Assembly: GCA_963675595.2 (NCBI GenBank) | Contig: CAXXLZ010000002.1 | Span: 608,001 to 672,000, forward strand | Length of the DNA: 64,000 bases | Source of the DNA: Thermodesulfobacteriota bacterium | GTDB lineage: Bacteria; Desulfobacterota; Desulfarculia; JACQYL01 | Reading direction: 5' to 3' | Part shown: positions 44,841 to 62,849 of the stretch, piece by piece | How positions within the stretch are numbered: the stretch's first letter is position 1 | Layout of the letters: every line of letters begins with the position of its first letter | Program-made: the position numbers and the translations under genes | The notes under the pieces: model-generated | What the model saw: the letters and a program-made list of their open reading frames with translations, nothing else | What the model was told of the DNA's origin: nothing | Databases searched by the model: none

Positions 44841-44868
44841 AATTCGCCGTATCCCTTCACGGGATATC

Positions 44869-45218: not shown

Positions 45219-46768
45219 CTAGAGTTTAGAGTCTGGCGACCCTTGGTATAGGAAAAATGCGAATAAAGACAACAAAGTACTTGACATTGCCGCGCGGATG
45301 CGCGGCCGCCTTTGGCGGCCCTTTAAGGAAAGAAACCTTTCCTTGGGGGTCAACCAATGGATTCGACGGCTCAAGCACTTATGCTCCTATCGCAGTGGAT
45401 TTCCTTTCTATTTCAGGCCGTTCCGTGCAGAATAGCTCCGACTCTTCTGGAACTCCTGATGGGATGTATGGTCTGCCGCGGCGGCCATATTTCTTCCGCG
45501 CTTCTGGCCGTTCGGCCCCAGTTGTCCTGGACCGCCTATTACAAGGCCATCGAAAAGGGCCGATTCCAATGGCTTGCGCTAGCCCGGCAATGGATGCGCC
45601 TGATCCTGAAACGGATTCCAAACCGATCCATCGAGTTCGCCATAGACGACTTCCCTTTGCCCAGATCGTCCAAGAAAGCTCCCTGCGCCGGTTGGCATTA
45701 CGATCACGCGCACCGGCCCAACCGCCCCAAATTCCTGTGGGGACAGCTTCGGGTTTCTCTGGCTGTCATCTGCCGCCACAAGGGCCGGGTAGCCGCGTTT
45801 CCCCTCTTGTTTCGGCTCATCCGCAAAAAAGGGAACACCACCAAACTGGACGCGGCGCGGCTCTTGATGTCCGTTCTCATGACTTGGCTGCCGGATCGCT
45901 TTCTCATTATTCTGCTGCTCGATGCCTGGTATATGAAAAGCTCCCTGGTGGTTCCCCTGATTCGCGATGGTGTGACGGTCATCGGCCAAGTCCGCAAAGA
46001 TACCGCCCTGTTTTTGCCTCCGGACAATCCGCCTCGGAAGAAACGGGGCAGACCCAGAAAGTATGGGGAAAAACTCACGTTGGAAAACATCGGACGATTC
46101 TGTCGTCCGGTGGAGAAAACCCTCTTTGCCTACGGCTCGGAACGAGTTTTCCAGTTCTACCAAACCAAAGCCAAAGTCCGCTTCCTGGACGGCCGGTTGT
46201 GCAAGATCGTGTGGTGCCGGTTTATGTCCGACAACCCCTCTTGGTCCGATTGGCATCTTCTGATCAGTACCGATCCCGACATGGACGGCGCGGAAGTGAT
46301 TACACGCTATGCACGACGATGGTGGACCGAGCCCATGTTCAACGAGATCAAGCACCTGTTCGGACTGAAAAATGCTTGGCAGCAGACACGGCAGACATTG
46401 GCTCGATGGAGCATGATCTTGTGCCTGGCCTACGGCTTGCCACGGCTCTTGGCGCTCTGCCTGGGTCCCAACGCGGCCTATACGATGTTTCCAATCCCTT
46501 GGAGAAAGAACAGGCCCGCCACCGCCGGCTGGATGGCCGCAGCCATCGGTCGTCTTTTCGGCAACTTAAACGTGCGAGCCATGTGGAACCGGAAATCCAA
46601 AAAATTCCAACCGGAATTCACCGATTCTCCGGAAGACTTGGGGCGCGCTGCCTGATATCCGTGTTCAGTCAATCATCTCAAAGCCTTACGTCAACGGTAT
46701 TCAACCCGTCTTGGAGAACTATGCTCTTCTATACAAACTTGGCTGCCCCGCATGGCTCTAAACTCTAG
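45219..46768 (+). mobile_element. Insertion sequence, IS4/IS701-like, 1550 bp
   Basis: Perfect 13-bp terminal IRs CTAGAGTTTAGAG (45219-45231) / CTCTAAACTCTAG (46756-46768); 9-bp direct repeat TTCCACTAG at 45210-45218 and 46769-46777. Confidence 0.92.
45357..46655 (+). CDS. DDE transposase (IS4/IS701-like)
   Basis: AIDD, LLDAWY, KKRGRPRKYG, YARRWWTEPMFNEIK (YREK-like). Confidence 0.9.
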   Translation: MDSTAQALMLLSQWISFLFQAVPCRIAPTLLELLMGCMVCRGGHISSALLAVRPQLSWTAYYKAIEKGRFQWLALARQWMRLILKRIPNRSIEFAIDDFPLPRSSKKAPCAGWHYDHAHRPNRPKFLWGQLRVSLAVICRHKGRVAAFPLLFRLIRKKGNTTKLDAARLLMSVLMTWLPDRFLIILLLDAWYMKSSLVVPLIRDGVTVIGQVRKDTALFLPPDNPPRKKRGRPRKYGEKLTLENIGRFCRPVEKTLFAYGSERVFQFYQTKAKVRFLDGRLCKIVWCRFMSDNPSWSDWHLLISTDPDMDGAEVITRYARRWWTEPMFNEIKHLFGLKNAWQQTRQTLARWSMILCLAYGLPRLLALCLGPNAAYTMFPIPWRKNRPATAGWMAAAIGRLFGNLNVRAMWNRKSKKFQPEFTDSPEDLGRAA

Positions 46769-48328
46769 TTCCACTAGAATTAGACCTAGATAATGCACAA
46801 ACCCGTGAGCGTCGGCCACCGGTGCGAGACTCCAGCCCGCGGCCGCAGCGGTGCCGTAGACATCCACACCGCAGGCTTCCAGGGCCGGTCGCGCCTGGTC
46901 TGGCCTGGAACACGCCCCCGAGGGATCGCAGGTCTTGCACAACGTGCAGGGTCCCGCGCCGAAAGCCAACGCTTTAGGATGACCCGCCAGGAAGATTTCC
47001 CGTTCGAGCTTCAATAGTCGTTGATGAAACTCCCGGCCCGGCGGCTCCCCTTGAACCAGCAAGCCCCAATCATAAGCGGCGAGCACTTTGTTCATTTCCC
47101 GCTCGTCCGGCGAGTGAGGAGGACATTGCAGGTTCCGTCCGAAGCCGGAACAGCCGTAGGCGCATTTCAGGCGCACCCAGGGAGCGGTGACGACCCGGTC
47201 CGCGTGCATGGGGGTCGCCTTTCGAAAACCCATCTTCCGGGCCCGGAAAGCCCAAAGGCCTTTTCGTCCTTGTTCCGGGCGAGGTGACGGCCCTCGGCCC
47301 GCCGCCAGAAGCATGGTATCCGTATCCAGGGAATGAGGAAGCCACGGATTCAGGCCGGCGCGGCGCAGCATGTCCTCAACCGCTTCGCGTTCGTGGATGC
47401 GGCCGTTATAGGTATTGAGGAGCATGTGCAGGTCATACAACTTGCCCTTCAGCGGGTCCGCTCCCAATCCTTCGTAATCGTAATCGTGAACGACCAGAAT
47501 TCCGTCCGAGTTCAGGAGAGAAGCGGCGGTTTGGACAAGGGCGCCGGCTTCCTCGGTTCCATAGGCGTGCAGCACATTGGACAGCAGCACGAGATCGAAG
47601 CAGGCTTCGCGCAGCGGCGGTTTACGAACGTCACAGGCCAAGCGGGCAACACCCTGCCAGTCTTCGCTTAGGGGATATCTCCGCGACCCCGCTTCGATCA
47701 CTTCGGGCAGGTCCGCCAAAACGGCCCGACAGTCCGGCCACCGCCGGACCATGGAACGCGCCCACGCCCCCGCTCCTCCTCCGAAGTCGAGAACGCGTTT
47801 CGGAGAACGATCCGTCCACCAATCCAGGACATCGACGGCTTCCTCCGCTTTGAGCCGGGCCTGTGCGTCCAATGCTTCCACATATTCGAAAACCCGACGA
47901 CGATAAGCCTCGGAAGACTCCGAGGCGTTCCGCTGGTTGACCTCCACTCCGACGCGGACCCTGCCGGCAAGCCGTTTCCAGTGAGGGGCGAAGTAGTTCC
48001 GATACTTCAGAAAACGGCCCAAATATTCCGGAGCGCCCTCCACCAGGTGTTTGGCCGCCAGCGGTCCGTTCTCCCAGTCATGGGGAGATCCGACGAGCAA
48101 TCCCACGGCGCCCAAGGCCTCACACAGCCGTGCGAGCGCGTCCCCGTCCCAGCCCGATTCCGGAGCCCACTCGTCGATCCGCCCTCCGTTCCTGTGGATG
48201 AGGGTGAACAAGTCGAGGTCCAACGCCGCGAACAGCACTTCGGAATACCAGTGCGCCGTGGCCAGGTCCTCGAGATACTGGTAGGAGTTTTGAGCCGGAT
48301 CGGCTTGTTTCGTGAGAGTCTGCATCAT
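46691..48328 (-). CDS. bzaC: O-methyltransferase + Cys-rich DUF2284-like domain (BzaC), with a 25-aa IS-derived C-terminal extension
   Basis: Dimerisation domain, LDFGGGAG SAM motif, LSNVLH; LKCAYGC..CPP, GPCTLC, EACGVDV; bza context. Confidence 0.82.
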   Translation of the reverse strand: MMQTLTKQADPAQNSYQYLEDLATAHWYSEVLFAALDLDLFTLIHRNGGRIDEWAPESGWDGDALARLCEALGAVGLLVGSPHDWENGPLAAKHLVEGAPEYLGRFLKYRNYFAPHWKRLAGRVRVGVEVNQRNASESSEAYRRRVFEYVEALDAQARLKAEEAVDVLDWWTDRSPKRVLDFGGGAGAWARSMVRRWPDCRAVLADLPEVIEAGSRRYPLSEDWQGVARLACDVRKPPLREACFDLVLLSNVLHAYGTEEAGALVQTAASLLNSDGILVVHDYDYEGLGADPLKGKLYDLHMLLNTYNGRIHEREAVEDMLRRAGLNPWLPHSLDTDTMLLAAGRGPSPRPEQGRKGLWAFRARKMGFRKATPMHADRVVTAPWVRLKCAYGCSGFGRNLQCPPHSPDEREMNKVLAAYDWGLLVQGEPPGREFHQRLLKLEREIFLAGHPKALAFGAGPCTLCKTCDPSGACSRPDQARPALEACGVDVYGTAAAAGWSLAPVADAHGFVHYLGLILVELEFRAMRGSQVCIEEHSSPRRVEYR

Positions 48329-48484
48329 CCGTCCCACCGGTCGTTGAAGAACTTCCGGAGTATCGTCATCGGGTAAGCCCCGAAAAGCGTTCGGTTCCCA
48401 TGTCCAACGGTTGCATGGAATGTGGAGGGCGTCCGTTAAAGACGGCCGCCCTTCGCCGTAATCAACTTTGCCGGATACCGGACG

Positions 48485-49798
48485 TCAGGCTTTGGCCGAA
48501 GCGCACAGAGCATCCTGGAAAAGTTCCATGCTTCCCTTGTTGGCGCAGAACTTTCCGCACATGGTGCAGGAAGTCAGGTCTTCGGGAGATCGCTCCATTC
48601 GGATGGCCCGGGCATCTTCCGCGAAAAGCGCAAGGTCGAACTGCTTTTCCCAGTCGGAGTCTCTCCTGGCCTTGCTCATGGCCAAGTCCCGTTGTCTTCC
48701 TCGTTCCGGATATTTGGCCGTGTCCCCGATGTACGCCGCCACGCGAGCCGCTTTGACTCCTTCCACCACGTCCTTTTCGTTGGGAAGCGCCAAGTGTTCT
48801 GCGGGAGTAATGTAGCAGATGAGGTCCGCGCCGAAACGCGCGCTCTGAGCCGCGCCGATGGCGGCGGTCACATGGTCCCAGCCCGCCGTCACATCGCTGG
48901 GAATGGGACCCAACATGTAGTAGGGAGCGTGGTTGCTCATCTGTTTTTGCAGGATGATGTTGGCCTCGATCTGATCCAGAGGCACATGGCCCGGCCCTTC
49001 CACCATCATTTGGCATCCCATGGCGCAACCGATCTCCGCCAATTCGCAATTGATGAGCAGTTCCTGAACCATGGCCCGGTCGAAGGAATCGTGAATGGCG
49101 CCGGCCCTTAGACCGTTACCCAAAGACAGCACCACGTCGTATTTCTTCAGGATTTCCACCACCCGATCGAACTTCTCATACAGGGGGTTTTCGCGGTTAT
49201 TCCGCTTCATCCACGCCACCATACTGGTGCCGCCCTTGCTCACAAGTCCTCCGTAGCGATAGCCCTGCTTCTCAAGCCGCTCGATGGTGTAGCGATTGAT
49301 ACCGCAATGGATGGCCATGAAGGCGAGACCGTCGGCGCACTGCGCTTCAATGAGGTCGAAAAGCAGCTCCTCATCCAGTTTGTTGGGGTCGCCGTACTTG
49401 TGTGCCGCCTCACAAAAGGCCTGGTAGAGCGGGACGTTTCCCACGGGGATTTGGACCGCTGCCAGGACCCCTCGCCGAATCCGGTCCAGGTCTCCTCCCA
49501 CGGAGAGTTCCATGAGGGTATCCGCTCCCGCGTTCTCCGCGGCCACGGCTTTGCGGACCTCGGCGTCCAGGTCCACGATGTCCGTGGAGGTACCGATGCT
49601 GGCGTTGATCTTGGTTCGGAGCCCGAGGCCGATGCCCACGGGTTTGGGGGGGTGATTGAGGTTGAAGGGAATCACCACTCGGCCGGCGGCCGTCAGTTCG
49701 CGGATGCTCTCGGCATCGAGCCCCTCCGCCGCGGCGATTTCCTTCATCTGCGGGGTTATGACGCCCTTCTTGGCGTATTCCACCTGCGTTGCCACCAT
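48485..49798 (-). CDS. bzaF: ThiC-family 5-hydroxybenzimidazole synthase (BzaF-like)
   Basis: TKINASIGTS, GADTLMELS, SKGG, EGPGHVP, YITPAEHL, CTMCGKFC; cobalamin riboswitch and cobT context argue against thiamine ThiC; SD AGGAGGA before ATG 49798. Confidence 0.85.
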   Translation of the reverse strand: MVATQVEYAKKGVITPQMKEIAAAEGLDAESIRELTAAGRVVIPFNLNHPPKPVGIGLGLRTKINASIGTSTDIVDLDAEVRKAVAAENAGADTLMELSVGGDLDRIRRGVLAAVQIPVGNVPLYQAFCEAAHKYGDPNKLDEELLFDLIEAQCADGLAFMAIHCGINRYTIERLEKQGYRYGGLVSKGGTSMVAWMKRNNRENPLYEKFDRVVEILKKYDVVLSLGNGLRAGAIHDSFDRAMVQELLINCELAEIGCAMGCQMMVEGPGHVPLDQIEANIILQKQMSNHAPYYMLGPIPSDVTAGWDHVTAAIGAAQSARFGADLICYITPAEHLALPNEKDVVEGVKAARVAAYIGDTAKYPERGRQRDLAMSKARRDSDWEKQFDLALFAEDARAIRMERSPEDLTSCTMCGKFCANKGSMELFQDALCASAKA

Positions 49799-49854
49799 TC
49801 TCCTCCTTTTCTTTAGAAGAATCGGTTCAAGCCGGCGGGTCGCCCGTCCGAGAC

Positions 49855-49890
49855 AAAAAAAATCCTCGGACGCGGAACGCCCAAGGATTT
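49855..49890 (-). terminator. Riboswitch expression-platform terminator
   Basis: Minus strand AAATCCTTGGGCG-TTCCG-CGTCCGAGGATTT followed by a T run, between the aptamer and bzaF. Confidence 0.75.
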
Positions 49891-49908
49891 GCCATCTCCT
49901 GGTAACGC

Positions 49909-50078
49909 CGACTGACGGCAGGTCTTCTGACTCTTGGATCATCCTACTTCCCGCGCCTTCCCACTCCATTGACATGAAGCAGTGACATTCTGCGGGTTTC
50001 GTCCCCAATCACAGCGGCGGGTCCGTACCGGATTTTCGCCGGTTTCCCCATTAAGGCCTTACGGCCGCCGATCAGTCG
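49909..50078 (-). ncRNA. Cobalamin riboswitch
   Basis: Minus strand: GGGGAAACCGGCGAAAATCCGGTACGGACCCGCCGCTGTGA, CACTG...GGGAAGG, B12 box GAGTCAGAAGACCTGCC, closing helix CGACTGA/TCAGTCG. Confidence 0.93.
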
Positions 50079-50182
50079 CCCTATTCAATTGTGCGGAGAA
50101 AGTTAGTCCGTACCCACCTTTCCAGTCAAGTGAAAAACGACCGGCTTCAATCCTCGGTACGACACGGCCGCCCCGAAGCGGC

Positions 50183-50983
50183 TCAATTCCGCCTCGAAAT
50201 TCCGTGTTCGTCGAGCAGTCGATCGAAACTTTGCCTGGCATGTTGATACAACGCCAGATCGAGTTGGTTGCGTTCAAGAATGAGCCTGGGTACCACGTCG
50301 AAGTCGATGGACTGGAATACTTCTTTCTTCACTTCGGATACCGCCGCGTTCATACGTCCCGTGGACTCGACATCGGAGAACCCCAGAATCCTTTTCATAA
50401 GCTCAAGGGAACGGGGATATTCCTCCATCAGGCCGATACAGGAAAAATGGCCGTCCAGATGATGAATCGCCCGGTTCAGGTCCGCCGGCTCAAGCTTGGG
50501 CCGAAAATCCGGGGTTCCGTCCTCCGTGCAAAGCAACCGTACCTGGCAGTTCTCGACCTCCACCGTGAGGTCCGACTGAACGAACTCTTCGATGGGCATC
50601 GGCTTTTCGGGGTTCCGGTGGACTTCAGAATAAAGGTAATGATTGGACCAAGTCCTGGCGTGAATATAAAAAGAAATCACTCGATCCACCGGATGACGGA
50701 GAAAAGTAACATAGGAACATCGTTCTCCGAAACGCTTGTGCCAACCGAAGGAAATATGGCCTTCAATACAGTCATACTTGCGAAGCAGGTCCGGGGGCAG
50801 CCGCTTGAGTCCGTTGACCGGATCGTCGTAAGTCGCCGTAAAAATTCGTTCCTCGTTGATGTTCTTCCGAATTACGGCACTGAATGTTGTTCCACCCGTC
50901 TTGGGTATATGAAGGAAGATGAGTTTCCGGCCGGGATTCAGACGTCCCAATACACAATTCTTAAGTCTCTGGAAGTAATTCAT
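50183..50983 (-). CDS. Sulfotransferase family protein
   Basis: FLHIPKTGGTT (5'-PSB), TFLRHPVDRVISFY (3'-PB), NQLDLALY. Confidence 0.88.
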   Translation of the reverse strand: MNYFQRLKNCVLGRLNPGRKLIFLHIPKTGGTTFSAVIRKNINEERIFTATYDDPVNGLKRLPPDLLRKYDCIEGHISFGWHKRFGERCSYVTFLRHPVDRVISFYIHARTWSNHYLYSEVHRNPEKPMPIEEFVQSDLTVEVENCQVRLLCTEDGTPDFRPKLEPADLNRAIHHLDGHFSCIGLMEEYPRSLELMKRILGFSDVESTGRMNAAVSEVKKEVFQSIDFDVVPRLILERNQLDLALYQHARQSFDRLLDEHGISRRN

Positions 50984-52311
50984 AAGAACACACCAATCAC
51001 GGCTGGGGGATAATGAATGTTCATACTCGTAACGGGAATATTCTAAGAAGTCTAGCGTCTTCTCTTCTTGGCGTTATTCCTATTTCAAATCTTAATCTTC
51101 CCGACTGTATCTTGCATGCGACGAGACCACAATCCGTTACCGGCTGATCCTCGCATACACACTTATTCATATTCCATAATATCAATACGGAACCGAGTGT
51201 AGCCTCTCATCCGTATCTTGGCGGCATCCGTATTTCATGAATGTGCCGGACGGATTCTCCAGCGCACAGAGCGAAATTTCATTTGGTTCTCCGGCACGGT
51301 CCGTGTCTGCGATACTCAACATTAGAGAGACGAGTCCATGAATACATCCTGCTTGCTTGCACAAACAAAGCCGCTCTTCGTATTCGTCACGGAACCGTCA
51401 AAAACAATGCAGTCTTTGGAGAATCGGTGACATTCTTATTTCAAATCTGCGGCGCTTTCAAGCCTTTTTGCAAGTACCGGACATATTCGAGGAGGCCGCC
51501 TGGTCGGATGAATCCGCCGGTCCACCGAGGAAGACCCGAGACAAACGGCCTCTCGGGAGGTCGTTGAAAAGAGCGATCTACGGGCCATGAGAGAATTGCC
51601 GAGCGAGCAAGGTCATCGTCCGGTCTCAGGCTCGGATACCGGATACCGCTCATCGGACGTAACGGTTCATCATCCCGGCATACGATACTCCGGGGTTTGC
51701 ACGCCTATTGATCTCACTGTGGGCATCCGGATCCATCCGTAATTTCGGTTCGATCTTGAAGCAGTCATTACGATTCAAGAATTAAGATATATTGTTTCGC
51801 AGATATTCATAGACTCGAACTACTCATTAAATCGGAGCTAATTGACGATTTGCCGGAAAAGGAAGGCAGGTCGGTCCGTAGTGAGGCTGAGACGCTGCGA
51901 GAGAGACGTTTCTCGGACGAGCGAACGAAGCAGGCCCGGCTCGGAACGGCATTCAAGCCGGCCCACCGGGGAAGTGGGGTGCGAGGCGCCGGCTGCGTTC
52001 AAAGGCCTTCTTTCAAGAAACGAGAGGATTTCATCAACGGAGTGATACGTGTCTTCGAGGTAATGAACGATGTGACAGGTCAAGCGGGACTTGATGGAAA
52101 CCGAATACAACAACGTTTCCCGAACGATGAAACCCGTGTGGAAAAGGGCACCCGCCCGGCTCCCCTTCCCGCCCGGTCATTCTCTACAATCGCCGTCCTT
52201 TCGACTTCATGATACGGCGCGCCGGGCCCGTCCATGCGACCTTGCCTTGGCCGGCGTATCCGATCAGCGTTCTGCATTTGCATTTCAACAAGGAAACAAC
52301 ACCCCTGTGCT

Positions 52312-55300
52312 CTACGATGTTCTCCTTCGCCGTAAGCGTGAAAGGGCCGCCACAGCCGCCAGAATCATCAGGACGGCGGCGCCCCGGGTGGTGAGGGTGG
52401 GGACGTGCGAAATCCGGGAATACGCCTCTGCGCCGGAGGATGTGTCGGGCGCGCAGGGGCCGCTCGGGTCCGTAATCGTTGTGTCGACTGCGTCGGTGTC
52501 GTAGGGCCCCCCTTCGGTCAGTTGAATGGTGATTTTGGTCTTATCGGGCACAGTGTCATGATCCACGGTCGTGGCAATGTCTTCCCATGCGCCGGTGTTT
52601 TTGTTTTCGTCGAAATAGCCCGTTATCGAAGCGTCCCTGGGAGTGAATACATCAATGGTTACCTTCTGGCCGGCCGTGACGCCGTGAACCTCGAAACTGA
52701 AGGCGCCGAAGGGCATTTGGAGATTGGAAGGCGCACCCACTGCGGTCGGAGAGAAGGCCGAAACGTTTTGAAGACTGATTCCTTCGTTGGCCCGGCAATC
52801 GAAGGTAACATATCCGGAGTCGTCATGGGTCGGCAGGGATGTGACATCGACCTGGTCTTGGTCCGGGATACCATCTCCGTTCCCGTCACCGGTACCGCCG
52901 CCCGGGGTAGGCACATTGGCCTCCGTTCCCGGAGCTACGCCGTCATTGTCGTCCGAGTCTCCGTTGAGGGTCAGGTCATAGGGATTTTCGTCGTCGTCAT
53001 TGTTGTCAATGGAGATGACGGCGGTTTTGTCGCCTGCGGACGTGGGGCTGAAGCGCACCGTAAAGTCGGTGGAACCGGACGCGGCCACGGGTGACGTGGG
53101 TTGCGACCGGATGCTGAATTGATCGGAGTCCGCGCCGCCCACCGAGAGGGGAGTGGTAAATGTCAGATTCGAGGTTCCGGTGTTTTCAATGGTAAACACC
53201 ACGTCCATATCCGTACCTGTAACCCGGCTTCCGAAGTCGTGCGCGCCGCCGTCCGTTATGGGGTTGATTCCCTGCTTGAGGGCGATTTCGGGCGCGGTCC
53301 CTTTACCGTTGAGGGTCAGGTCATAGGGATTTTCGTCGTCGTCATTGTTGTCAATGGAGATGACGGCGGTTTTGTCGCCTGCGGACGTGGGGCTGAAGCG
53401 CACCGTAAAGTCGGTGGAACCGGACCCGGCCACGGGTGACGTGGGTTGCGACCGGATGCTGAATTGATCGGAGTCCGCGCCGCCCACCGAAAGGGGAGTG
53501 GTAAATGTCAGATTCGAGGTTCCGGTGTTTTCAATGGTAAACACCACGTCCGTATCCGTACCTGTAACCCGGCTTCCGAAGTCGTGCGCGCCGCCGTCCG
53601 CTATGGGGTTGATTCCCTGCTTGAGGGTGATTTCGGGCGCGGTCCCTTTACCGTTGAGGGTCAGGTCATAAGGATTTTCGTCGTCGTCATTGTTGTCAAT
53701 GGAGATAACGGCGGTCTTGTCGCCTGTGGACGTGGGGCTGAAGCGCACCGTAAAGTCGGTGGAACCGGACGCGGCCACGGGTGACGTGGGTTGCGACCGG
53801 ATGCTGAATTGATCGGAGTCCGCGCCGCCCACCGAGAGGGGAGTGGTAAATGTCAGATTCGAGGTTCCGGTGTTTTCAATGGTAAACACCACGTCCGTAT
53901 CCGTACCTGTAACCCGGCTTCCGAAGTCGTGCGCGCCGCCGTCCGCTATGGGGTTGATTCCCTGCTTGAGACCCATTTCCGGTGGAGGAAGCTCGGAATA
54001 AGCACCAATGCTGATGGGACTTTCGGGTTCGATCTCAGCCCCACGCTGGTCATAGTAATTGCCTCCCGAAGTGGTGGCGCCGTTCCAAACACCGTTTCCC
54101 GAGTCGGCATATGGAATGGCATCAAGGGCAATACTGCCGCTTTCCAATGCCAGAGTTTGGGTGGGGCCGCCGTTGTCGGCCAATGTCTGGGTGGCTTTGC
54201 CGCTTCCGAAAAGATTCTCCATGCCGGAATAGATATTTGTGCTGTTGGTGAAGGTTTTGCCTGCCCCGGTTGTATCGCCGTTCTGCACGTAAACGATATT
54301 ATATCCCATGTCGTACAGAGTACCATATCCCACGTAGTAATAGTCCTCATCAGAATTCCCGGCTATAATCGTATTCCGTACGGTCATTGTGGAGCGAGGG
54401 GTACCAATGTTTTGATAGAAATACACTCCTCTTCCATAATTTGTTGCAGTATTTCCTGTTATTGTACAGTTCTCTATAGTAGAATAGATCGCTTTGAATG
54501 TCTGACCATAGGCTGCAACACCTCCTCCCCCGCTATTTCCGGCGGTGTTGTTACATATAGTTGATCTTCTGATGACTAAGTCTACGGAAGAAGTGCTTAG
54601 TTCGGCATTGACGATAGTATATATACCGTGTCCCGATTGGATTCCCGTATTGTTGTTTATGGTACACGCATCCACGCTCAAGTTGGAATTTTGGGCAAAT
54701 ACGCCTGAAGCACTGTATTGCGTGACGTTTTGGGAGACCGTGCAGTCCGTCATAGTGGCGGTGGACAGGTCGACGAACAGGCCTCCGACTTGATAGGTTG
54801 CCGTATTCCCTTTCAGGTCCGTTTGATCAAGATGAACGGTGCAGCCGGTGGCGTAGATGCCGCCCCCTTTATAGGACTTGGAGTCTGAAATCACGGAATT
54901 GTTGATGTTCACCGTTCCGGCGGAAATATAGACCGCGCCGCCATATCCGTTTTCAGTATCCCCATTTCCCGATATATCTCCGCCCTTGATCGTCATGTTG
55001 TCGAGCGTGACGGTTTTATCCGCGCCACTGATATGGAACACACGAAACGCGGACGCTCCGGGCGTCGTCACCTGCACGGTCACCGGGTTGGCGTTGCCCG
55101 TGTTGGCACCGTCTATGGTCAGACTTTTCGTGATTGCAAGCTCCGAAAGGATGGTGATGGTTTCATTTCCCGATGCCAGGTTGAAGGTGATGGCATCGTC
55201 TTCCGCGGCATCGGCGATGGCTTGACGCAGGGACCCTGCGCCGGAGTCTGCGTTGCCGGTCACCACGTGTTCGGCGGCGAACGCGGGAAGTATCGGCAAC

Positions 55301-55365
55301 AGGCAACAGCAAAGGGTACAAACGATGCGGATACTGATTCTTAAGCACGGATTGGCAACAATCAT
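52312..55365 (-). CDS. Secreted surface protein: beta-helix-like region, three Ig-like repeats, acidic domain, IPTL-CTERM sorting signal
   Basis: Signal peptide ending AFA; DSGAGSLRQAI; GGA-x repeats; LADNGGPTQT..DQRG..IGAY; GDGNGDG; C-terminal VPTL + TM + RRRR. Confidence 0.85.
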   Translation of the reverse strand: MIVANPCLRISIRIVCTLCCCLLPILPAFAAEHVVTGNADSGAGSLRQAIADAAEDDAITFNLASGNETITILSELAITKSLTIDGANTGNANPVTVQVTTPGASAFRVFHISGADKTVTLDNMTIKGGDISGNGDTENGYGGAVYISAGTVNINNSVISDSKSYKGGGIYATGCTVHLDQTDLKGNTATYQVGGLFVDLSTATMTDCTVSQNVTQYSASGVFAQNSNLSVDACTINNNTGIQSGHGIYTIVNAELSTSSVDLVIRRSTICNNTAGNSGGGGVAAYGQTFKAIYSTIENCTITGNTATNYGRGVYFYQNIGTPRSTMTVRNTIIAGNSDEDYYYVGYGTLYDMGYNIVYVQNGDTTGAGKTFTNSTNIYSGMENLFGSGKATQTLADNGGPTQTLALESGSIALDAIPYADSGNGVWNGATTSGGNYYDQRGAEIEPESPISIGAYSELPPPEMGLKQGINPIADGGAHDFGSRVTGTDTDVVFTIENTGTSNLTFTTPLSVGGADSDQFSIRSQPTSPVAASGSTDFTVRFSPTSTGDKTAVISIDNNDDDENPYDLTLNGKGTAPEITLKQGINPIADGGAHDFGSRVTGTDTDVVFTIENTGTSNLTFTTPLSVGGADSDQFSIRSQPTSPVAGSGSTDFTVRFSPTSAGDKTAVISIDNNDDDENPYDLTLNGKGTAPEIALKQGINPITDGGAHDFGSRVTGTDMDVVFTIENTGTSNLTFTTPLSVGGADSDQFSIRSQPTSPVAASGSTDFTVRFSPTSAGDKTAVISIDNNDDDENPYDLTLNGDSDDNDGVAPGTEANVPTPGGGTGDGNGDGIPDQDQVDVTSLPTHDDSGYVTFDCRANEGISLQNVSAFSPTAVGAPSNLQMPFGAFSFEVHGVTAGQKVTIDVFTPRDASITGYFDENKNTGAWEDIATTVDHDTVPDKTKITIQLTEGGPYDTDAVDTTITDPSGPCAPDTSSGAEAYSRISHVPTLTTRGAAVLMILAAVAALSRLRRRRTS
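52961..53970 (-). repeat. About 2.9 near-identical 345-bp tandem repeats (115-aa Ig-like domains)
   Basis: Unit start CCGTTGAGGGTCAGGTCATA at 52961, 53306 and 53651; only scattered substitutions. Confidence 0.95.
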
Positions 55366-55756
55366 GAAGAAACCTCTTTTTCCATTGTCATTTCAGATGC
55401 CTCGTTTGGTCGCGAGACGCTCGACAGGCTCCACATGTGCTCTTTGAAGGCCCGAAAGGTACTTGAAGCCGCTCTAAGCACTCCCAATGCGATCTCTGCC
55501 CGGCTTGAAAAGTTCTTCACGTACATTTCAGAAATACCTCTCCTACCGGAATCCCGCAACCCGTTTTTGAGATCATGCGTCTTCAATGCCGCCGGCCGAC
55601 GGATCCATCCGTGATTGCGGCTTGACTTTGAAGCGGTCACTACGATACAAAAAATTAAGACGTATTGTTTCGCAGACATTCATAGGTCGGCGGCTGAAGG
55701 ATGATATTTCCAAGCCGTACTCAGCTTACACGCACATTCGCAGATAGGAATCGACC

Positions 55757-56281
55757 ATGCAGGATACGCCCCGGACCAAGTCTACGCCGGATGAAAACAT
55801 CAGTCGTCGCAAGATACTCAAAGCGGTTGCCGCTCTTGGAGGGGCATTTGCCGGAACCGCCCTGGTACCCGGGAAATGGTCGTCTCCGGTCGTTGACTTG
55901 GGAGTCGTGCCGGCCCATGCGCAGGCCAATTCAGACCCTCTGGAGCTTATCGGAGAATTGGAGATTCATGAAGCCTCTCCCGACGTATTCGACGAGATAG
56001 CACCTCTGGACAACGCGATCTCCTATTCGGCTCAATGCGAATACAAGGATCCTCTCCGATCATTGACCTCCGCCAACACCACGGCTACCGGCAAGACCAA
56101 CTGCAGCGCCAGTGTCCCCACCAGCGTGAGCTATGTCTCTCCCGAACGGGCCTCTCAAGGCTATATCGGCTTCCTGTTCCAGACCGCGCTGTGCAATCTG
56201 ACGTCCACCGAATTCTGTGTGAAGATCAATTCCGGCAGTCGTTACAGCAATGAGAAATGCGCCCTCATCACGCATGAATGA
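55757..56281 (+). CDS. Tat-signal protein with WxxPxV...PAHAQ leader and a Ser/Thr/Cys-rich mature region; candidate modification substrate
   Basis: SRRKILK + hydrophobic stretch + PGKWSSPVVDLGVVPAHAQA; SD-like AGGA before ATG. Confidence 0.75.
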   Translation: MQDTPRTKSTPDENISRRKILKAVAALGGAFAGTALVPGKWSSPVVDLGVVPAHAQANSDPLELIGELEIHEASPDVFDEIAPLDNAISYSAQCEYKDPLRSLTSANTTATGKTNCSASVPTSVSYVSPERASQGYIGFLFQTALCNLTSTEFCVKINSGSRYSNEKCALITHE

Positions 56282-56365
56282 CGCCTCGTTTGTCCAAAGT
56301 CCGGGACCGGGTCCATTCGTGAACCTCCGGCTTCTCTCGTAAGGGACAAGTAGGGCAGGCGGCGA

Positions 56366-59300
56366 ATGGCGAAAATCGTCCTGTATACCTCCGGAACATT
56401 GGGAGATCACCTGCCGTTCATCGCTCTGGGTCGGGCGTTGGCGGAAGGCGGCCATGAGGTGCGCTTGGCCGCCAACAAAGCCATGCACTCCCATGTTCGG
56501 CGATCCGGTCTTGAGGCCGTCTCCCTGGGAGAGGAAGACTTAGGCCCACAAGAAGCCCGGCGTGACGCCTGGGCCTGGGACTTCTGGAAGTGTCCCGATC
56601 CGAGTTCCCATCCGCAAGCTCCTTCAGTCCCCTTCGAAAGCTACATGGTACAGGTGCACAATCTGCTGGAATTGTGCAAGGGAGCGGATATCCTGATTTC
56701 CACCGCCATCCGGCTGCAAGGTTTCATTGTCGCCCGTGCCCTCAAAATGCCCTGGCTTACCGCCTCACTGAACCCCTACACTTTCTGGGCGCCCGCCACG
56801 CCCAAGCAGGCACGAGATCAGTACCAACTTCGTCAAAAGGAATACCGCCGTTTCAGCGTAGTCGCGAACTTGGCCTTTGAGGAATTGGGCGTGGATGAAC
56901 GCGTCGGGGCCTGGTCGCCCGGCTGGCTCTATGCACGCCACATACTGCTCGCCGCCGGCGCTCATTTCGGCAAACCCGACCTCGATCAATTTCAGCCCAA
57001 CACCAGCATAGATATGACCGGATTCTGGTTTTACCAGGACCCCCGATGGTCGGAATGGAGACCGGATGAGGACCTGCTGCGGGTGTGCGAACCGGCGGAT
57101 CCGAACCGGAAGCCCATTGTTTTGTCTTTCAGCAGCCAACCCCTGCTGGAAGCGGAAAGCATCCTACAACGGCACGTTCGGGCGGCCGCCGCTCTGAATC
57201 GCCCTCTCGTGATCCAGCGTGGCTGGGCCGACTTCTCGGAATCCCAATTGCCGCCGGACGTGGACTCCGGGAACGTACTGTTTACCGATTTCATCCCCCA
57301 CGACTGGCTTTTTGCCCGGGCCGCCTGCACAATCCAGCATGGCGGCATCGGATCCATCGCCCGCGCACTGGCCCATGGCTGTCCCGTTCTAGTGGAACCT
57401 TTCGGCAACGATCAATTATTCAACGCAAACCTGGTTGAGAGGCTCGGTGTGGGAGCCGCACTCCATCCGTACGAAAGCGAGATCGAAGACCTGGTGGATG
57501 CCGTGCGGAACAAAGTGCTCACGCCCGACTGTCGGCACCGGGCAAAGACTTTGGGGGAGAAGATCAAGACCGAACACGGCCTGGAAACCGCCTGTGAAAT
57601 GATCGAGCGCTATCTCGGGCGTATCGGCCCCGACGGCGACCTCCCGAAGATATACGGACGCTTCGCTCCGCCCCTCGGCCGAAGGCCGCGACGCCCCATG
57701 AGCGCGGGAACCGACATTCAAGGCGGAGCCGTCTCAACGGTTGCGCCCACCGATGAGACCAAGAACGCCATTCCAAAAATCATCCATCAGACTTGGCAAA
57801 ACCACAACCTACCGCAGGACATGGCCGCCTGGCAGCGCACCTGGCTGAAGCATCACCCGGATTGGACGTATTACCTGTGGACGGATGAGGATAAACGCCG
57901 ATTCCTGAATGATCACTATTCCTGGTTCCTGCCTGTGTACGACGGGTATCCCGAGGAGATCATGCGGGTCGACGCCGTGCGATACTTTCTACTCCACCAT
58001 TACGGCGGGGTTTACGTAGACCTCGACTTCGAATGTTTCCGTCCTTTGGAGCCTCTTCTATCCGGCAAGACATTGTTTTTCGGCCTTGAACCCGAGGAAC
58101 ACGCCAGGCTTCAATCCACGGACCGCCACCGCGTCAGCTGGATCGTGTGCAACGCGTTCATGGCCTCGGTACCCGGACATCCTTTCTGGGAGCATTCGTT
58201 CAAGCAATTGATCGCTTATCACAAAGCCCCCGGAGTACTGGACGCAACAGGTCCTTTCTTTCTGACCCGGACCTGCCGAACCTACGCGAATCAGTCCGAA
58301 ATTCACCTCGAACCCCCGGAAACGCTGTACCCGATCCACAACCGACAGAAATGGGACAACCTGCCGGCCGAGGAACGGGAGCGCATCCGTGGAACCGCGT
58401 ATGGTGTTCATCATTGGAGCGGCGTTTGGTGGCGTCCAATCGTCGCGCAACAAGCCAATCAGGCTTCCGTGTTATTGGCCGACAAAGGCATGCAACTGGC
58501 CCAGGCCACCGCGGACCTCGAAGGCTGCCGCGCGTCTCTCTCACAATCGAGCGCCCCGCCGCTCATCTCCTGCCTGATGGTGACCCGAAATCGCCCGCAT
58601 TTGGCACAACGGGCGATCACCTGCTTTCAAAGGCAAACCTACCCTCAAAGAGAGTTGGTCATTGTGGACGACAGTCCGGATGACGCCCTCCAAGTCCGGG
58701 TCGACCGATTGCAGGATGAGCGCATCCGCTACCTGCGCCTGCTTCCCGGAGGCGCATCGCTCGGTGAGCTGCGCAACATTGCCGTTTGGAAGGCGGCCGG
58801 CGAGTATGTCGCCCAATGGGACGACGACGATCTCTCCGACCCCCTGCGGCTGGAAAACCAGATGGCCCTGATTCGGGCTTATCAGGTCGAAGCCTGCATG
58901 CTTGCCCGCCAAATTCTCTGGTGGCCTTCGAGACGCCGCTTGGCCGTCTCGACGCCTCGTATCTGGGAAGGCTCCTTTGTCTGCCGGCGAAAGGCTCTGC
59001 CTCCCTATCCTCATCAACGCAAGGGAGAGGACACCCCGGTCATCAACCGAATCGTCTCGGAGGAGAGGGTCGTTCTTCTGAATCTCCCCCAAATGTATGT
59101 GTACGTTTTTCACGGTGAAAACACTTTCGACGAAAGCCATTGGGAGAAGCTGTGGGCCGCCGCGGACGAATGGTATGAAGGCGATCATTACGACATCCGG
59201 ATACGGGAATTGGAAGAGCGCCTCAATTTGGACCTGAGTGGAAACGGGGAGCCTCCGACAACCGAGGCGTCCTCTCCGCGAGTCCCCTCTTCTTCCGAAG

Positions 59301-60181
59301 CTCCGGCCGTTGGAGAGACGGACGAGAGCCGACCGGCCCCCGGACCGCTGATGGAAGCGGAGGAAGCGGGTCCCCCGCACCCCATAAGCTCTCCACCCTC
59401 CCCCGAAAATCGACCTGCGGTGCTCATCCTCGTCCCCGTCAAGGATGCCGAGCCTTACCTGCCGTCCTTCCTGGACGGATTGGATGCCCTGACCTATCCC
59501 CCGAGGCGGCTGTCCCTCGCTTTTCTGGAGGGCGACAGCACGGACGACACGTATGGACAGGTCCAAAGGCTGCTGCCCAAACTGAGGGAAAGGTATGCCG
59601 GAGTGGCGCTCTATAAAAGAGACTACGCCTACCGCGTCGACAAGCCGCGCTGGGAACCCGGCGAGCAGATCAAACGCCGATCAATTTTGGCTGGAAGCCG
59701 CAATTATCTACTGTCGCGCGCCCTGGGCGAGGAGGACTGGGTGCTTTGGATGGACGTGGACCTGGCGCGATGGCCCAAAGACGTCATTGAGCGACTGCTG
59801 GCCCCCGGCAAGGAAATCGTGGTTCCCAACTGCCTCCGTCTGGGAAGCGGCGCCACCTTCGACATGAACAGCTTCAAACTCAAACCAAATGCCGAAAACC
59901 TGGATTGGGATTCCCATTTGATCAACGGCATTCTTCAGCCGCCGGCCGGTTACGGGCGACTTTATCTGAACGATCTGCGCGAGCATTCCATTGTCGAGCT
60001 CGACGCCGTGGGCGGGACCATGCTGCTGGTAAAGGCGGACCTGCACCGCGAGGGACTGGTCTTTCCGACTTTCCCCTACAAGCGACACATTGAAACCGAG
60101 GGACTGGCCATGATGGCCCGGGATATGGGCTATTCGTGCTGGGGCCTGCCGAACCTGGAAATCCACCACCCCCCAACCTAA
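56366..60181 (+). CDS. Four-domain glycosyltransferase (GT1-like + GT32-like + GT2 + GT62/Anp1-like)
   Basis: GTLGDHLPF/HGGIGS/GNDQ; IPKIIHQTW/RYFLLHHYGGVYVDLD; ISCLMVTRNR/QWDDDD; SRNYLL/WMDVD/LDAVGG/IETEG. Confidence 0.88.
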   Translation: MAKIVLYTSGTLGDHLPFIALGRALAEGGHEVRLAANKAMHSHVRRSGLEAVSLGEEDLGPQEARRDAWAWDFWKCPDPSSHPQAPSVPFESYMVQVHNLLELCKGADILISTAIRLQGFIVARALKMPWLTASLNPYTFWAPATPKQARDQYQLRQKEYRRFSVVANLAFEELGVDERVGAWSPGWLYARHILLAAGAHFGKPDLDQFQPNTSIDMTGFWFYQDPRWSEWRPDEDLLRVCEPADPNRKPIVLSFSSQPLLEAESILQRHVRAAAALNRPLVIQRGWADFSESQLPPDVDSGNVLFTDFIPHDWLFARAACTIQHGGIGSIARALAHGCPVLVEPFGNDQLFNANLVERLGVGAALHPYESEIEDLVDAVRNKVLTPDCRHRAKTLGEKIKTEHGLETACEMIERYLGRIGPDGDLPKIYGRFAPPLGRRPRRPMSAGTDIQGGAVSTVAPTDETKNAIPKIIHQTWQNHNLPQDMAAWQRTWLKHHPDWTYYLWTDEDKRRFLNDHYSWFLPVYDGYPEEIMRVDAVRYFLLHHYGGVYVDLDFECFRPLEPLLSGKTLFFGLEPEEHARLQSTDRHRVSWIVCNAFMASVPGHPFWEHSFKQLIAYHKAPGVLDATGPFFLTRTCRTYANQSEIHLEPPETLYPIHNRQKWDNLPAEERERIRGTAYGVHHWSGVWWRPIVAQQANQASVLLADKGMQLAQATADLEGCRASLSQSSAPPLISCLMVTRNRPHLAQRAITCFQRQTYPQRELVIVDDSPDDALQVRVDRLQDERIRYLRLLPGGASLGELRNIAVWKAAGEYVAQWDDDDLSDPLRLENQMALIRAYQVEACMLARQILWWPSRRRLAVSTPRIWEGSFVCRRKALPPYPHQRKGEDTPVINRIVSEERVVLLNLPQMYVYVFHGENTFDESHWEKLWAAADEWYEGDHYDIRIRELEERLNLDLSGNGEPPTTEASSPRVPSSSEAPAVGETDESRPAPGPLMEAEEAGPPHPISSPPSPENRPAVLILVPVKDAEPYLPSFLDGLDALTYPPRRLSLAFLEGDSTDDTYGQVQRLLPKLRERYAGVALYKRDYAYRVDKPRWEPGEQIKRRSILAGSRNYLLSRALGEEDWVLWMDVDLARWPKDVIERLLAPGKEIVVPNCLRLGSGATFDMNSFKLKPNAENLDWDSHLINGILQPPAGYGRLYLNDLREHSIVELDAVGGTMLLVKADLHREGLVFPTFPYKRHIETEGLAMMARDMGYSCWGLPNLEIHHPPT

Positions 60182-60190
60182 GGTGCTTTG

Positions 60191-60511
60191 ATGGAGACGA
60201 CGAACAATCCCGGCGGTCACCACGTACGAGACGACGACTATCCCACTCGGGAAAGCGACTTCACGCTCGAACAGCTGGACGGCGAGCTGCTTCTTTACCA
60301 CCCCACGGAGACCACCATTCTTTATCTCAACCAGACCGCTTCGATGATCTGGGGACTCTGCGACGGCAGCAGGAACGTGCGTCGGATCATCCAACTGCTC
60401 ATCGAGGCCTATCCCGATGGCGCTGAGGCCATCCCTTCGGAAGTGACCTCCACGCTGGAGAAATTCCTCGAAGCCGGCAGTATCCGTTTGGAGAACGAGC
60501 CAAAAGATTGA
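60191..60511 (+). CDS. Stand-alone PqqD-family RiPP recognition element (RRE)
   Basis: LDGELLLY..YLNQTASMIWGLCDGSR...L.EAY...V...LEKFLEAGSI pattern. Confidence 0.9.
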   Translation: METTNNPGGHHVRDDDYPTRESDFTLEQLDGELLLYHPTETTILYLNQTASMIWGLCDGSRNVRRIIQLLIEAYPDGAEAIPSEVTSTLEKFLEAGSIRLENEPKD

Positions 60512-60737
60512 AGGAACCGTGGGCTCGCTTTCTTTCTCAAGGGATTTCGTCCAAAATTCGTAACTCCCGGTCCTCTCCGCCCCGAGGGGATGCCGGATGT
60601 CAAGATCACGGAGCTTCGCCTGTGGATCCGGCGGTACTACGGAGTGCAATCGTCGGTCGGGATCGGTGTCGAAGGATGAACATACCCCACACGAGATGGA
60701 ATAAATCAAAGGACCGGTCAGTGAACCCGGAGAGGCC

Positions 60738-61601
60738 ATGAGATCGCGATGGGTACGATTTGCGGGAGTCATCCTCCGAATCGACTACGAAGGTGAAGCC
60801 GCTTCGCGCCTTGTGGACGTCCTTTATCGTCATCTCCCCGATGCTTCGGTTGCCGGCCGATTCCAGGCCCCCCATGTCGCGTATCGATTGATCGGCCACG
60901 ATGAAACCGGCGAACTGTGTCTCTTCATCGGGCAGGAAACCGAGGTGCGCTTCACCGAGCCGAGCGACATGGCGGCCTATTTGATGCATCAAACCTCCTA
61001 CGATCCGGCCTATCACTGCAAGGCCGGAATCATGCTCCACAGCGCCTGCATTTGCCGCCACAGGCGAGGCCTGCTGCTGCCCGGCGCTTCCGGCAGCGGA
61101 AAGACCACCCTCAGCGCTCGACTACTAAGCAGCGGATTCGATTTTCTGAGCGACGAACTGATTTTTGTCGGCCATGGAACCAACGAAGGCCAAGGGCTCA
61201 CGCTGCCCTTCAATTTCAAACCCTCCGCCCGGCCCTTGTGGGAAACCGCCTTCGGCATTCGACCTTCCGACCCGGCCATACTGAGCAACTCCGATTTGGA
61301 TCTCGTGCCGCCGGACCTGTTGAAAGGCGGCTCCACGGTCGAACAATCCACCCTGCACGCGGTCGTGTTCCCACACTTCACTCCCGAAGCAAAGAACGGC
61401 TTGCCCGAGCTGAAGCCCATGTCCAAAGCGCGGGCCGGTCTCAGACTCATGGAAGTGCTTCTTAACGCGCGCAATCTGCCGGGACACGGCTTCCCGGAGA
61501 TCAGCCGTCTGGCGCGGGACCTGCCCGCATACGAAATGGTTTATGGGGGGTTCGACGGAGTCGAACGGGCCGTCGGCAGTCTCCTTCCAACGGAAGGTTG
61601 A
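60738..61601 (+). CDS. HprK-related P-loop kinase
   Basis: LHSACI..GLLLPGASGSGKTTL..GFDFLSDE. Confidence 0.85.
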   Translation: MRSRWVRFAGVILRIDYEGEAASRLVDVLYRHLPDASVAGRFQAPHVAYRLIGHDETGELCLFIGQETEVRFTEPSDMAAYLMHQTSYDPAYHCKAGIMLHSACICRHRRGLLLPGASGSGKTTLSARLLSSGFDFLSDELIFVGHGTNEGQGLTLPFNFKPSARPLWETAFGIRPSDPAILSNSDLDLVPPDLLKGGSTVEQSTLHAVVFPHFTPEAKNGLPELKPMSKARAGLRLMEVLLNARNLPGHGFPEISRLARDLPAYEMVYGGFDGVERAVGSLLPTEG

Positions 61602-61706
61602 ACACCGCCGCCGTCTTTGTTCAACCCGTGTGAGGACAAGGGTCCGGCCGGCAACTCAAAATCGTCTGATCGGGGGTAAACCGAACCCCGACGGCCGCCC
61701 GGACCA

Positions 61707-62849
61707 TCACGATTCCAGTGCACCCTGCACAAGACGACGCCCTATTCTTCCGGTCATATGTAAGGGGTGGATCAGGCAACGGTGGGGCCATGCGCTCCTG
61801 TTCGGACCCAACCCGTGGTAAAGTCTCAGCCACCAGTCGGATGGAAAAAACAGCTCCTTGTAAGAACGGAAGGCTCCCAGCCGCCTTACTACTTCCTTCC
61901 AGGGTGGAGAGCAGTCACGGAGGTCGGGCGTCATCGGTGGTCCGTCGGAAAAGCCGAGCAAATGCCTCAACTCATCCGGCAAAGGCCAACTCCGGTCGAG
62001 CAGTTCGAGCGTGTTCACTACCAGAGGCGACTCCTCCGCCGTCTTTGTCCAATCAATCCGACGGTAATAGCGCCGAGCCGTGAGCACAATGTCCAGCAAC
62101 CAGATCAGGGGAATCTTGAATACGGCATGGTCACACAAGTGGTGGCAAAGGTGCCACAGCATCCATTCCGGAGGCAGGGTTCGGGCGGGGACCCCACCCC
62201 GGGAAAGCTCGAAGTTCAAGGCGCGGTCCGGGCGACGATCCGGTACACGGCTACCGGGCACCTGCGGACGGGAAAGGCTGTGATGCAACTCGACCACCAC
62301 CTTCAACCCGTTCACCTCACATTGAAGCTCGGGAAGGTGTCTTTCGCGGTGTAAGCCGCCCAAACCATGTTCCAGCGGAAAGACATCGATACCGATGCCG
62401 GATAAGACCTCTTTGGCCTGCTCCAGTTGGGACGGATGAATCAACAGATCCAGATCGCTCATGGGCCGTAAATGCGGGTGATCGTAGACCAGATGCCCCA
62501 GTGCCGCACCCTTCAGCAGAAGAACATCGAGTCCCACCTCTGCGGCCGGCCTCAGAATGCGCCTCAGCACCGTGTTTTGCGCTTCGGACAAATCCCGCCG
62601 CCGCAAGTAGACCCCCTGCAAAGCGAGCCGAAGTTCGGGCTTCAGCTCCGCCTTCAGGTGCCGCACCAAATGATAGAGCAGGGCCCCCAATCCGTGCCTT
62701 TCGGCAACGCTTAGAAAGGCCACGGGGTCCACTTGATTCAGGCCGGAAACCAAGGCTTCCAAAGCCTGCTCCGGGGGCGAATCGAGCGGCACCAATCCTG
62801 CGGCCGTTATCAGCAGTTCCTCATGCGTTCGGCGAATATCATCGTGCAA
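61707..62849 (-). CDS. Nucleotidyltransferase family protein (NTP_transf_5-like)
   Basis: LLLKGAAL..Y...RPMSDLDLLI, VELHH, HLCHH, WLLDI. Confidence 0.87.
   Translation of the reverse strand: MHDDIRRTHEELLITAAGLVPLDSPPEQALEALVSGLNQVDPVAFLSVAERHGLGALLYHLVRHLKAELKPELRLALQGVYLRRRDLSEAQNTVLRRILRPAAEVGLDVLLLKGAALGHLVYDHPHLRPMSDLDLLIHPSQLEQAKEVLSGIGIDVFPLEHGLGGLHRERHLPELQCEVNGLKVVVELHHSLSRPQVPGSRVPDRRPDRALNFELSRGGVPARTLPPEWMLWHLCHHLCDHAVFKIPLIWLLDIVLTARRYYRRIDWTKTAEESPLVVNTLELLDRSWPLPDELRHLLGFSDGPPMTPDLRDCSPPWKEVVRRLGAFRSYKELFFPSDWWLRLYHGLGPNRSAWPHRCLIHPLHMTGRIGRRLVQGALES

Follow-up and report, generated by a model that had tools for sequence, protein, structure and literature searches.

A conserved gene module with a twin-arginine leader protein, an RRE, an HprK-like kinase and a nucleotidyltransferase as a candidate Tat-leader variant of the LPP-type pathway

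A locus of seven open reading frames (ORFs) at positions 50183-62849 was analyzed in a 64,000-nt stretch of the Thermodesulfobacteriota assembly GCA_963675595.2, referred to here as the window, and its five-gene core (55757-62849) was found to be a real and conserved module. The core encodes a 174-aa protein with a twin-arginine translocation (Tat) signal, a four-domain glycosyltransferase (GT), a stand-alone PqqD-type recognition element of the kind known from peptides that are made on ribosomes and modified post-translationally (RiPP recognition element, RRE), an HprK-like P-loop kinase and a nucleotidyltransferase (NTase) of family PF14907. We consider it probable (about 0.6) that 55757-62849 works as a single unit by which the 174-aa protein is modified in the cytoplasm before its export, and that it represents a Tat-leader variant of the linear polyphosphorylated peptide (LPP) type of pathway described in Bacillota (Popov et al., Nat Commun 2026, PMC13381572). 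By analogy with the LPP and pseudomycoidin systems, the RRE would bind W41-x-x-P44 in the unusually long c-region of the Tat signal, and the kinase would phosphorylate Ser59, perhaps repeatedly, just behind the A-H-A signal-peptidase site (at position 3 in most relatives). The NTase may then add a sugar or a nucleotide to the phosphate, comparable to the PsmN-dependent hexosylation in pseudomycoidin, and the four-domain GT could build a glycan on that primer or on the immunoglobulin (Ig)-like domain of the protein. The architecture further suggests that the finished protein would be exported by the Tat translocon and cut at AHA↓Q by the housekeeping signal peptidase I. The most specific form of the proposal, in which the Tat signal is also a RiPP leader, the RRE holds the folded Ig-like cargo, and a phosphoglycan is built on the third residue before Tat export and trimming, is put forward tentatively, at somewhat less than even odds.

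All seven ORFs are open over the coordinates reported here and carry the domains assigned to them by Pfam and NCBIfam; scanning of each ORF with hidden Markov models (HMMs), as proposed in a preliminary description of the locus, recovered the expected PqqD, NTP_transf_5, HprK-like and GT domains. The precursor gene (55757-56281, + strand) is followed in the same direction by the genes for the GT (56366-60181, 1271 aa), the RRE (60188-60511, 107 aa) and the kinase (60738-61601, 287 aa), and the NTase gene (61707-62849, - strand, 380 aa) is convergent with that of the kinase. The leader of the precursor comprises residues 1-55 (nt 55757-55921) and includes R17-R18, an h-region, W41-x-x-P44 and G49-x-x-P52-A-H-A55. 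Downstream of it stand Q56 and the candidate acceptor Ser59, this part of the window protein reading A-H-A-Q-A-N-S. The S/T-R-R-x-x-L-K motif, the h-region and the AxA of a Tat signal are all present, the match to TIGR01409 (19.9-22.2 bits) exceeds its cut-off of 16.7, and export is predicted from the sequence; the host genome (6.79 Mb, 98% complete) encodes TatC (257 bits).

Conservation in the precursor family is concentrated in the leader. An alignment of 16 family proteins has M1, R17, R18, A30, W41, P44, P52, A55 and Q56 in common, and the leader follows the pattern of RR, 23-24 residues to WxxP, and G-x-LPAHAQ-x-S. Mean identity among these proteins is 55% over leader residues 16-59 and 19% over the mature parts. 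A conserved leader joined to a variable core is, as judged from sequence, a RiPP-precursor signature and the opposite of the pattern of ordinary secreted proteins. W41 and P44, singled out in the preliminary description, form the WxxP that is invariant in all 16 proteins and lies within the conserved leader. A profile search of 5.8 billion proteins returned 72 family members of 92-292 aa, among which no Pfam domain was found. The motif RR..WxxP..AQ fits 66 of the 72, and in 62 of these W follows RR at a spacing of 23; the second residue past the Q is Ser in 57 and Thr in seven of the 66, the window protein being one of the two exceptions. No Ser is common to the C-termini of the 16 aligned proteins. 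When searched against its own genome, the leader HMM has one match (E 2.5e-22), the next one standing at E > 1.

The gene set recurs in other genomes, mostly of Chloroflexota, with a few of Pseudomonadota, Acidobacteriota and Thermodesulfobacteriota. The 27 loci concerned were obtained by a scan of one genome per species with a 12-row kinase alignment (a 36-row alignment had no usable conserved stretch), and the window proteins were compared with them by tblastn. NTase, PqqD and kinase genes, hereafter the trio, occur together in 17 of the 27 kinase-seeded loci, and an NTase homolog adjoins the kinase in 19. The Tat protein is matched in 13 loci, in 11 of which the match covers only the signal region (residues about 12-60). 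The more sensitive picture comes from the leader HMM, which identifies a leader-family protein in 15 loci, one copy each, usually at one end of the operon; short contigs make up most of the 12 loci in which it finds no match. The co-occurrence on which the preliminary description had staked its model is thus observed for the trio and for the leader protein. A Pfam scan of 171 of the 198 neighboring ORFs in 19 loci (the remainder being identified cassette genes or small ORFs) showed surroundings of unrelated housekeeping genes and no cyclase, B2 peptidase or signal peptidase. ABC_membrane exporters lie near only two of the related loci, L016 and L066. In locus L030, from Thermoanaerobaculia, an IS21-type element (IstB and transposase, 13652-16336) splits an NTase remnant from the rest of the cassette, and this copy may be disrupted.

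The LPP clusters of Bacillota, with the gene order lppA-K-B-S-D-N, encode LppB (a discrete RRE), LppK (an HprK-like kinase), LppN (an uncharacterized NTP transferase), LppS (a signal peptidase I (SpI)-like leader peptidase) and LppD (an MsbA-like exporter) (PMC13381572). Their precursors of 35-200 aa have a conserved N-terminal YxxPxVLxHQxIxFETxxS and variable C-termini; the RRE binds [Y/W]xxP and presents the leader to the peptidase, LppK places several phosphates on core Ser3, and for LppN no effect was detected on heterologous expression (PMC13381572). The same report calls the pathway restricted to Bacillota (PMC13381572).

The module in the window resembles the LPP clusters in having a discrete PqqD-type RRE, an HprK-like kinase and a PF14907 NTase with no macrolactam cyclase, and in a precursor whose N-terminus is conserved and whose C-terminus varies. 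In both systems [Y/W]xxP stands 17-18 residues ahead of a conserved Ser; the spacing from W to Ser is 17 in the Tat-leader family and 18 in the window, and that of LppA is 18. A conserved Ser or Thr occupies position 3 past the leader cut (AHA↓Q-x-S in 64 of 66 family proteins, with the Ser of the window one residue later), and LPP clusters too are often found among glycosyltransferases. The two systems differ in that neither an SpI-like (SipW-type) leader peptidase nor an MsbA-like exporter is present at the window locus or conserved in the related loci. In the window family a twin-arginine signal opens the leader and an AxA-type site closes it, the motif has W where that of LPP has Y, the cores are folded domains of 110-230 aa, and the hosts (Chloroflexota, Pseudomonadota, Acidobacteriota and Thermodesulfobacteriota, together with the window genome) lie outside Bacillota. 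A genome search for the archaeal-type SpI (TIGR02228, cut-off 51.85 bits) gave no more than 24 bits, at a place outside the locus, and 50183-62849 has no peptidase gene. Because TatC is present and no archaeal-type SpI scores above the cut-off, we infer that Tat and signal peptidase I replace LppD and LppS. The original claim of a new system therefore has to be narrowed: an RRE/HprK-like kinase/NTase pathway free of a lasso peptide is already published as LPP, in a report that makes no mention of Tat signals (PMC13381572). Within the set of papers searched, nothing relevant joins the twin-arginine signal with the RiPP recognition element, and LPP is named only in that report.

The RRE of the window (PF05402, 43 bits) has LppB of the LPP pathway (9x8z_B) as its best solved relative in the PDB (E 0.0018), followed by the lasso RRE TbiB1, and it is 35-58% identical to the products of the PqqD genes in 19 kinase-seeded loci. 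Co-folding of the RRE with leader residues 12-66, both supplied as alignments, gave an ipSAE of 0.52 in three runs, the best of three controls reaching 0.00, with at least 90% contact agreement and a partner pLDDT of at least 59. This outcome is classed as weak support: 116 of 157 solved complexes and two of 215 mismatched pairs reach the ipSAE mark, and values up to 0.60 include only 18 of the 157 solved complexes together with both passing mismatches. Since RRE-leader complexes have already been solved, the score may reflect likeness to them rather than binding by this copy. Tat proofreading chaperones of the TorD/DmsD/NapD type stay bound to Tat signal peptides while their cargo is being completed. 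The RRE would be analogous to them, in general terms, as a small cytoplasmic protein that binds its cognate Tat signal before export, and it differs from them in its unrelated PqqD/RRE winged-helix fold and in its proposed purpose, which is enzyme recruitment and not cofactor insertion.

The kinase, which is single-copy in the genome, has the Walker A motif G116-x4-G121-K122-T-T124 followed by D139-E140, all of them invariant or nearly so in 36 homologs, and its best PDB match is the HPr(Ser) kinase 3tqf (E 0.004). It matches TIGR04352 (HprK-related kinase A) over positions 90-274 of 280 with E 1.8e-21 and 76.5 bits (72.6 bits in the genome search), and because this score is below the 200-bit cut-off we regard the kinase as a relative of that family and not as a member. 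Its homologs are at most 45% identical to it and are without names in the databases. The NTase (133 bits with the Pfam profile NTP_transf_5) carries the pol-beta-type motif K-G-x-A-L ... D-L-D-L-L, and comparison with the PDB gave no informative solved relative. The same three enzyme types are found together in the HPr-rel-A cassette, composed of TIGR04352, a PqqD-family protein and an NTase, from which the window trio differs by the kinase score far below the cut-off. That cassette is linked to exosortase loci and has long been annotated without a substrate.

Enzymes of these kinds are also known from lasso peptides. HPr-kinase homologs (PadeK of paeninodin, PsmK of pseudomycoidin) phosphorylate a Ser of the precursor, and the addition of hexose to the phospho-Ser requires the NTase PsmN (PMC6993621). 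The likeness thus extends to a PF14907-type NTase required for the hexose on the phosphate and to an RRE of the B1 type, and it would suit an explanation in which the trio consists of tailoring enzymes of a lasso peptide encoded elsewhere in the genome. This explanation, which the preliminary description had named as one that could undo its model, deserves almost no credence: the 98%-complete genome yields no match to the lasso B2 peptidase family PF13471, none of the eight Asn_synthase matches in the genome lies at the locus, and neither family occurs in the 171 neighboring ORFs of the 19 related loci. The window locus further differs from the lasso clusters in being without a cyclase and without a B2 peptidase, and its candidate acceptor Ser lies close to the N-terminal end of the core, the lasso acceptor being at the C-terminus. 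The earlier statement that the locus has no asparagine-synthetase-like, transglutaminase-like, radical SAM or YcaO gene also holds over 50183-62849.

The GT combines a GT1/EryCIII-like domain (residues 4-417), a Gly_transf_sug (GT32-like) domain (486-621), a GT2 domain (735-845) and an Anp1 (GT62-like) domain (1012-1237). The four domains are preceded by no N-terminal signal or transmembrane (TM) segment, an architecture that suggests a cytoplasmic enzyme and elongation of the glycan in the cytoplasm. The GT is 51-53% identical over its full length to that of L010, a kinase-seeded locus in an Anaerolinea metagenome-assembled genome, and the DxD motifs D552/D554, D768/D769, D819-D822 and D1130/D1132 are invariant between the two. 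A GT-seeded scan of metagenome contigs gave 33 further loci, or 28 clusters at 95% nucleotide identity, with GT identities of 34-61% by best segment, mostly about 50-55%. A leader-family precursor lies just before the GT, at a distance of typically 70-250 nt, in 20 of the 26 clusters that have at least 700 nt upstream, which argues that the GT is a real partner of this precursor subtype and sustains the earlier assignment of the four-domain GT to the Tat protein. The trio is present where the flanks suffice (L054, L055, L060, L062, L064 and L067) and partly present in L057, L063, L068, L069 and L071.

Neighboring genes in the GT-seeded set were scanned in 14 loci (47 of 96 ORFs, namely the unidentified ones near the GT). 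A GT10 fucosyltransferase gene stands beside the precursor or the GT in six of the 14 (L053, L054, L055, L071, L073 and L082). A Stealth (hexose-1-phosphate transferase) gene is found at L068:1004-2449, and in L055 (12530-13885) PqqD is fused to an FkbM-type methyltransferase. L053 (3690-5012) has two precursor genes in tandem, for proteins of 176 and 171 aa; each protein has the leader, and a single GT10 gene and the four-domain GT gene lie downstream.

The mature domain of the window protein (about residues 60-174) is a predicted Ig-like beta-sandwich. AlphaFold2 modeling with 20 homologs of the GT-linked type gave a mean pLDDT of 72, and over residues 61-170, where the per-10-residue blocks score 72-91 with one at 61, the model is a beta-sandwich of about eight strands; a precursor run with 16 rows of the mixed family (pLDDT 51) was not used. 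Foldseek comparison of the model with the PDB returned generic Ig-like matches only, none of them at E <= 0.001. The GT-linked precursors are full-length homologs of the window protein (26-39% identity), and their mature domains have conserved F-x-Y-x-D-P, D-S-A-T-L, P-C-G and R-x-S-N stretches.

These data bear on an alternative in which the module is the same and the GT glycosylates the Ig-like domain directly, on Ser/Thr or N-x-S/T, independently of the phospho-Ser. The GT travels with this one family of mature domains, and leaders with other mature domains are without this GT. In the kinase tree, which left out an identical duplicate and matches shorter than 220 residues (L024, L031-L036, L055, L063 and others), the kinases of the window and of L010 are sisters (support 97/91); the GT-linked loci fall in several kinase lineages, so that the GT and the mature domain seem to move as a unit. 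N-x-S/T also recurs near a conserved Cys, as in C-N-L-T-S-T of the window. However, the N-x-S/T columns are not invariant and the glycan could still be elongated from the phosphate, and on balance we hold direct glycosylation to be somewhat unlikely.

Several points weigh against the reading of 55757-62849 as a single phosphoglycosylation and export module. At the position of the family's Ser the window protein has Asn58, its Ser following one residue later, and the AQ motif as written is absent from six of the 72 family proteins. Cleavage at AHA↓Q is a guess, because a c-region of 18 residues is unusual for a signal-peptidase site. To our knowledge, export through Tat has not been described for any glycosylated protein. 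The role of the NTase is the weakest step, since LppN was without effect in the published heterologous work. Only one of the 27 kinase-seeded loci (L010) has the four-domain GT, and other GTs are found in three more (GT32 and GT4 in L025 and L026, PMT_2 in L027). A grouping of the GT-linked loci into one clade of the kinase tree was rejected, as their distribution takes four changes, at least two of which are forced by well-supported branches. The GT is accessory, its target may be the Ig-like domain instead of the phospho-Ser, and the glycan part is modular, because GT-linked loci are scattered on the kinase tree and other loci carry other sugar enzymes.

A further point is that the full-length loci L018, L025, L026, L028 and L029 have the kinase with the NTase and/or PqqD and no recognizable precursor; a motif search of the loci without a leader match gave no convincing alternative [W/Y]xxP precursor. 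Such loci would be expected if the trio acted on some other substrate (a short peptide, a polysaccharide or a lipid intermediate) and the Tat protein were a co-regulated neighbor, and the long annotation of the TIGR04352-type cassette without a substrate would fit this as well. Set against this, the leader occurs in the window genome only beside the trio, it carries the [Y/W]xxP that is bound by this type of RRE, and it is the part of the protein where conservation is concentrated. The gap of 226 nt between the PqqD and kinase genes (60512-60737), two genes that abut or overlap in most related loci, has no convincing ORF for a short substrate among its longer reading frames; the single long one (77 aa, TTG start) is rich in Arg and gives the impression of being non-coding. 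We judge the action of the trio on another substrate to be decidedly improbable.

The window locus and its 60 related loci suggest that LPP-type enzyme logic exists well outside Bacillota and that it operates here on full-size exported proteins, whose export and leader removal would fall to Tat and signal peptidase. If the single-module reading is true, it would provide a defined substrate for the widespread orphan kinase/PqqD/NTase cassette and an example in which a RiPP recognition element reads an export signal. A further consequence would be a route to phosphoglycosylated bacterial proteins that has no dedicated peptidase or exporter and is spread over several phyla. The pairing of an Ig-like domain family with the four-domain GT offers a compact system for the function of the NTase, which the LPP study could not settle.

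Two more genes lie divergently from the + strand genes of the core, namely a Sulfotransfer_2 gene (50183-50983, - strand; Pfam 39 bits, cut-off 22) and a gene for a 1017-aa choice-of-anchor D/U/Q surface protein (52312-55365, - strand; NCBIfam) with a Sec-like N-terminus. The preliminary description had joined all seven genes in one system, in which RRE-guided kinase and NTase action and the GT would act on the Tat protein and sulfate would cap the glycan. The first part of this model agrees with the gene associations and the conservation of the leader, whereas the roles given to sulfation and to the surface protein are not supported: at E <= 1, neither protein has a homolog in the 27 kinase-seeded and 33 GT-seeded loci, so that both roles rest on proximity in one genome. 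Moreover, the accessory enzymes of related loci are different ones (GT10 in six of 14 loci, Stealth, PMT_2, GT4 and FkbM), and the sulfotransferase gene is parted from the operon by the surface-protein gene and by a gap of 1.3 kb (50984-52311), which has a low G+C content (about 0.51) and no ORF matching any family. In favor of the seven-gene system, all its members are clustered in this genome, the sulfotransferase belongs to a carbohydrate-type Pfam family, and sulfotransferases occur in some phosphorylated-lasso clusters. The sulfotransferase and the kinase are both without a close homolog in 60 relatives of the host genome, and for this reason the whole block may be accessory and may have arrived together. 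We nevertheless find the seven-gene system improbable; the sulfotransferase and surface-protein genes seem to be neighbors of the module rather than conserved parts of it.

An 85-nt direct repeat is the remaining link between the two groups of genes. It is found in the genome only at 51728-51812, between the surface-protein and sulfotransferase genes, and at 55600-55685 (+ strand), 72 nt upstream of the precursor start; the copies are 81-89% identical (84% in the genome search) and flank the surface-protein gene. The repeat may be a shared regulatory element or the footprint of an insertion of the surface-protein gene between the sulfotransferase gene and the operon, and under neither reading is sulfation tied to the product.

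The tail of the surface protein resembles a sorting signal, with a C-terminal VPTLT, a TM segment and RRRR. It scores 11.3 bits (E 0.33) with the IPTL_CTERM model TIGR04174, below the cut-off of 20.5, and also has weak VPLPA and MYXO-CTERM matches; the 13 IPTL_CTERM matches in the genome do not include this protein, and the IPTL-CTERM label given to it earlier has been dropped. Within its gene, 52961-53950 consists of three tandem 345-nt copies that are 98-100% identical over 300 nt and encode three choice-of-anchor D Ig-like repeats. Their near-identity suggests recent duplication or gene conversion.

Both flanks of the locus are unrelated to the module. The right flank, beyond 63.3 kb, has MoaD-like and aldehyde-oxidoreductase genes. 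A promoter and terminator scan gave fewer matches than shuffled sequences and was not used. Two relatives with a ThiC-like ortholog of 75-76% have no other gene of window positions 40-64 kb in common with it, on the one side compared. In the left flank (43515-50008, - strand), one gene each of the ThiC/BzaB-like, methyltransferase-DUF2284 and BzaD-like B12-radical SAM types together resemble an operon for the lower ligand of B12 (benzimidazole), and a cobalamin riboswitch precedes them. The riboswitch (49900-50088, - strand; 109 bits), the only RNA family found with Rfam, lies in front of the ThiC/BzaB-like gene and overlaps the most upstream TTG of the ThiC-like ORF, which places the true start of this ORF further in.

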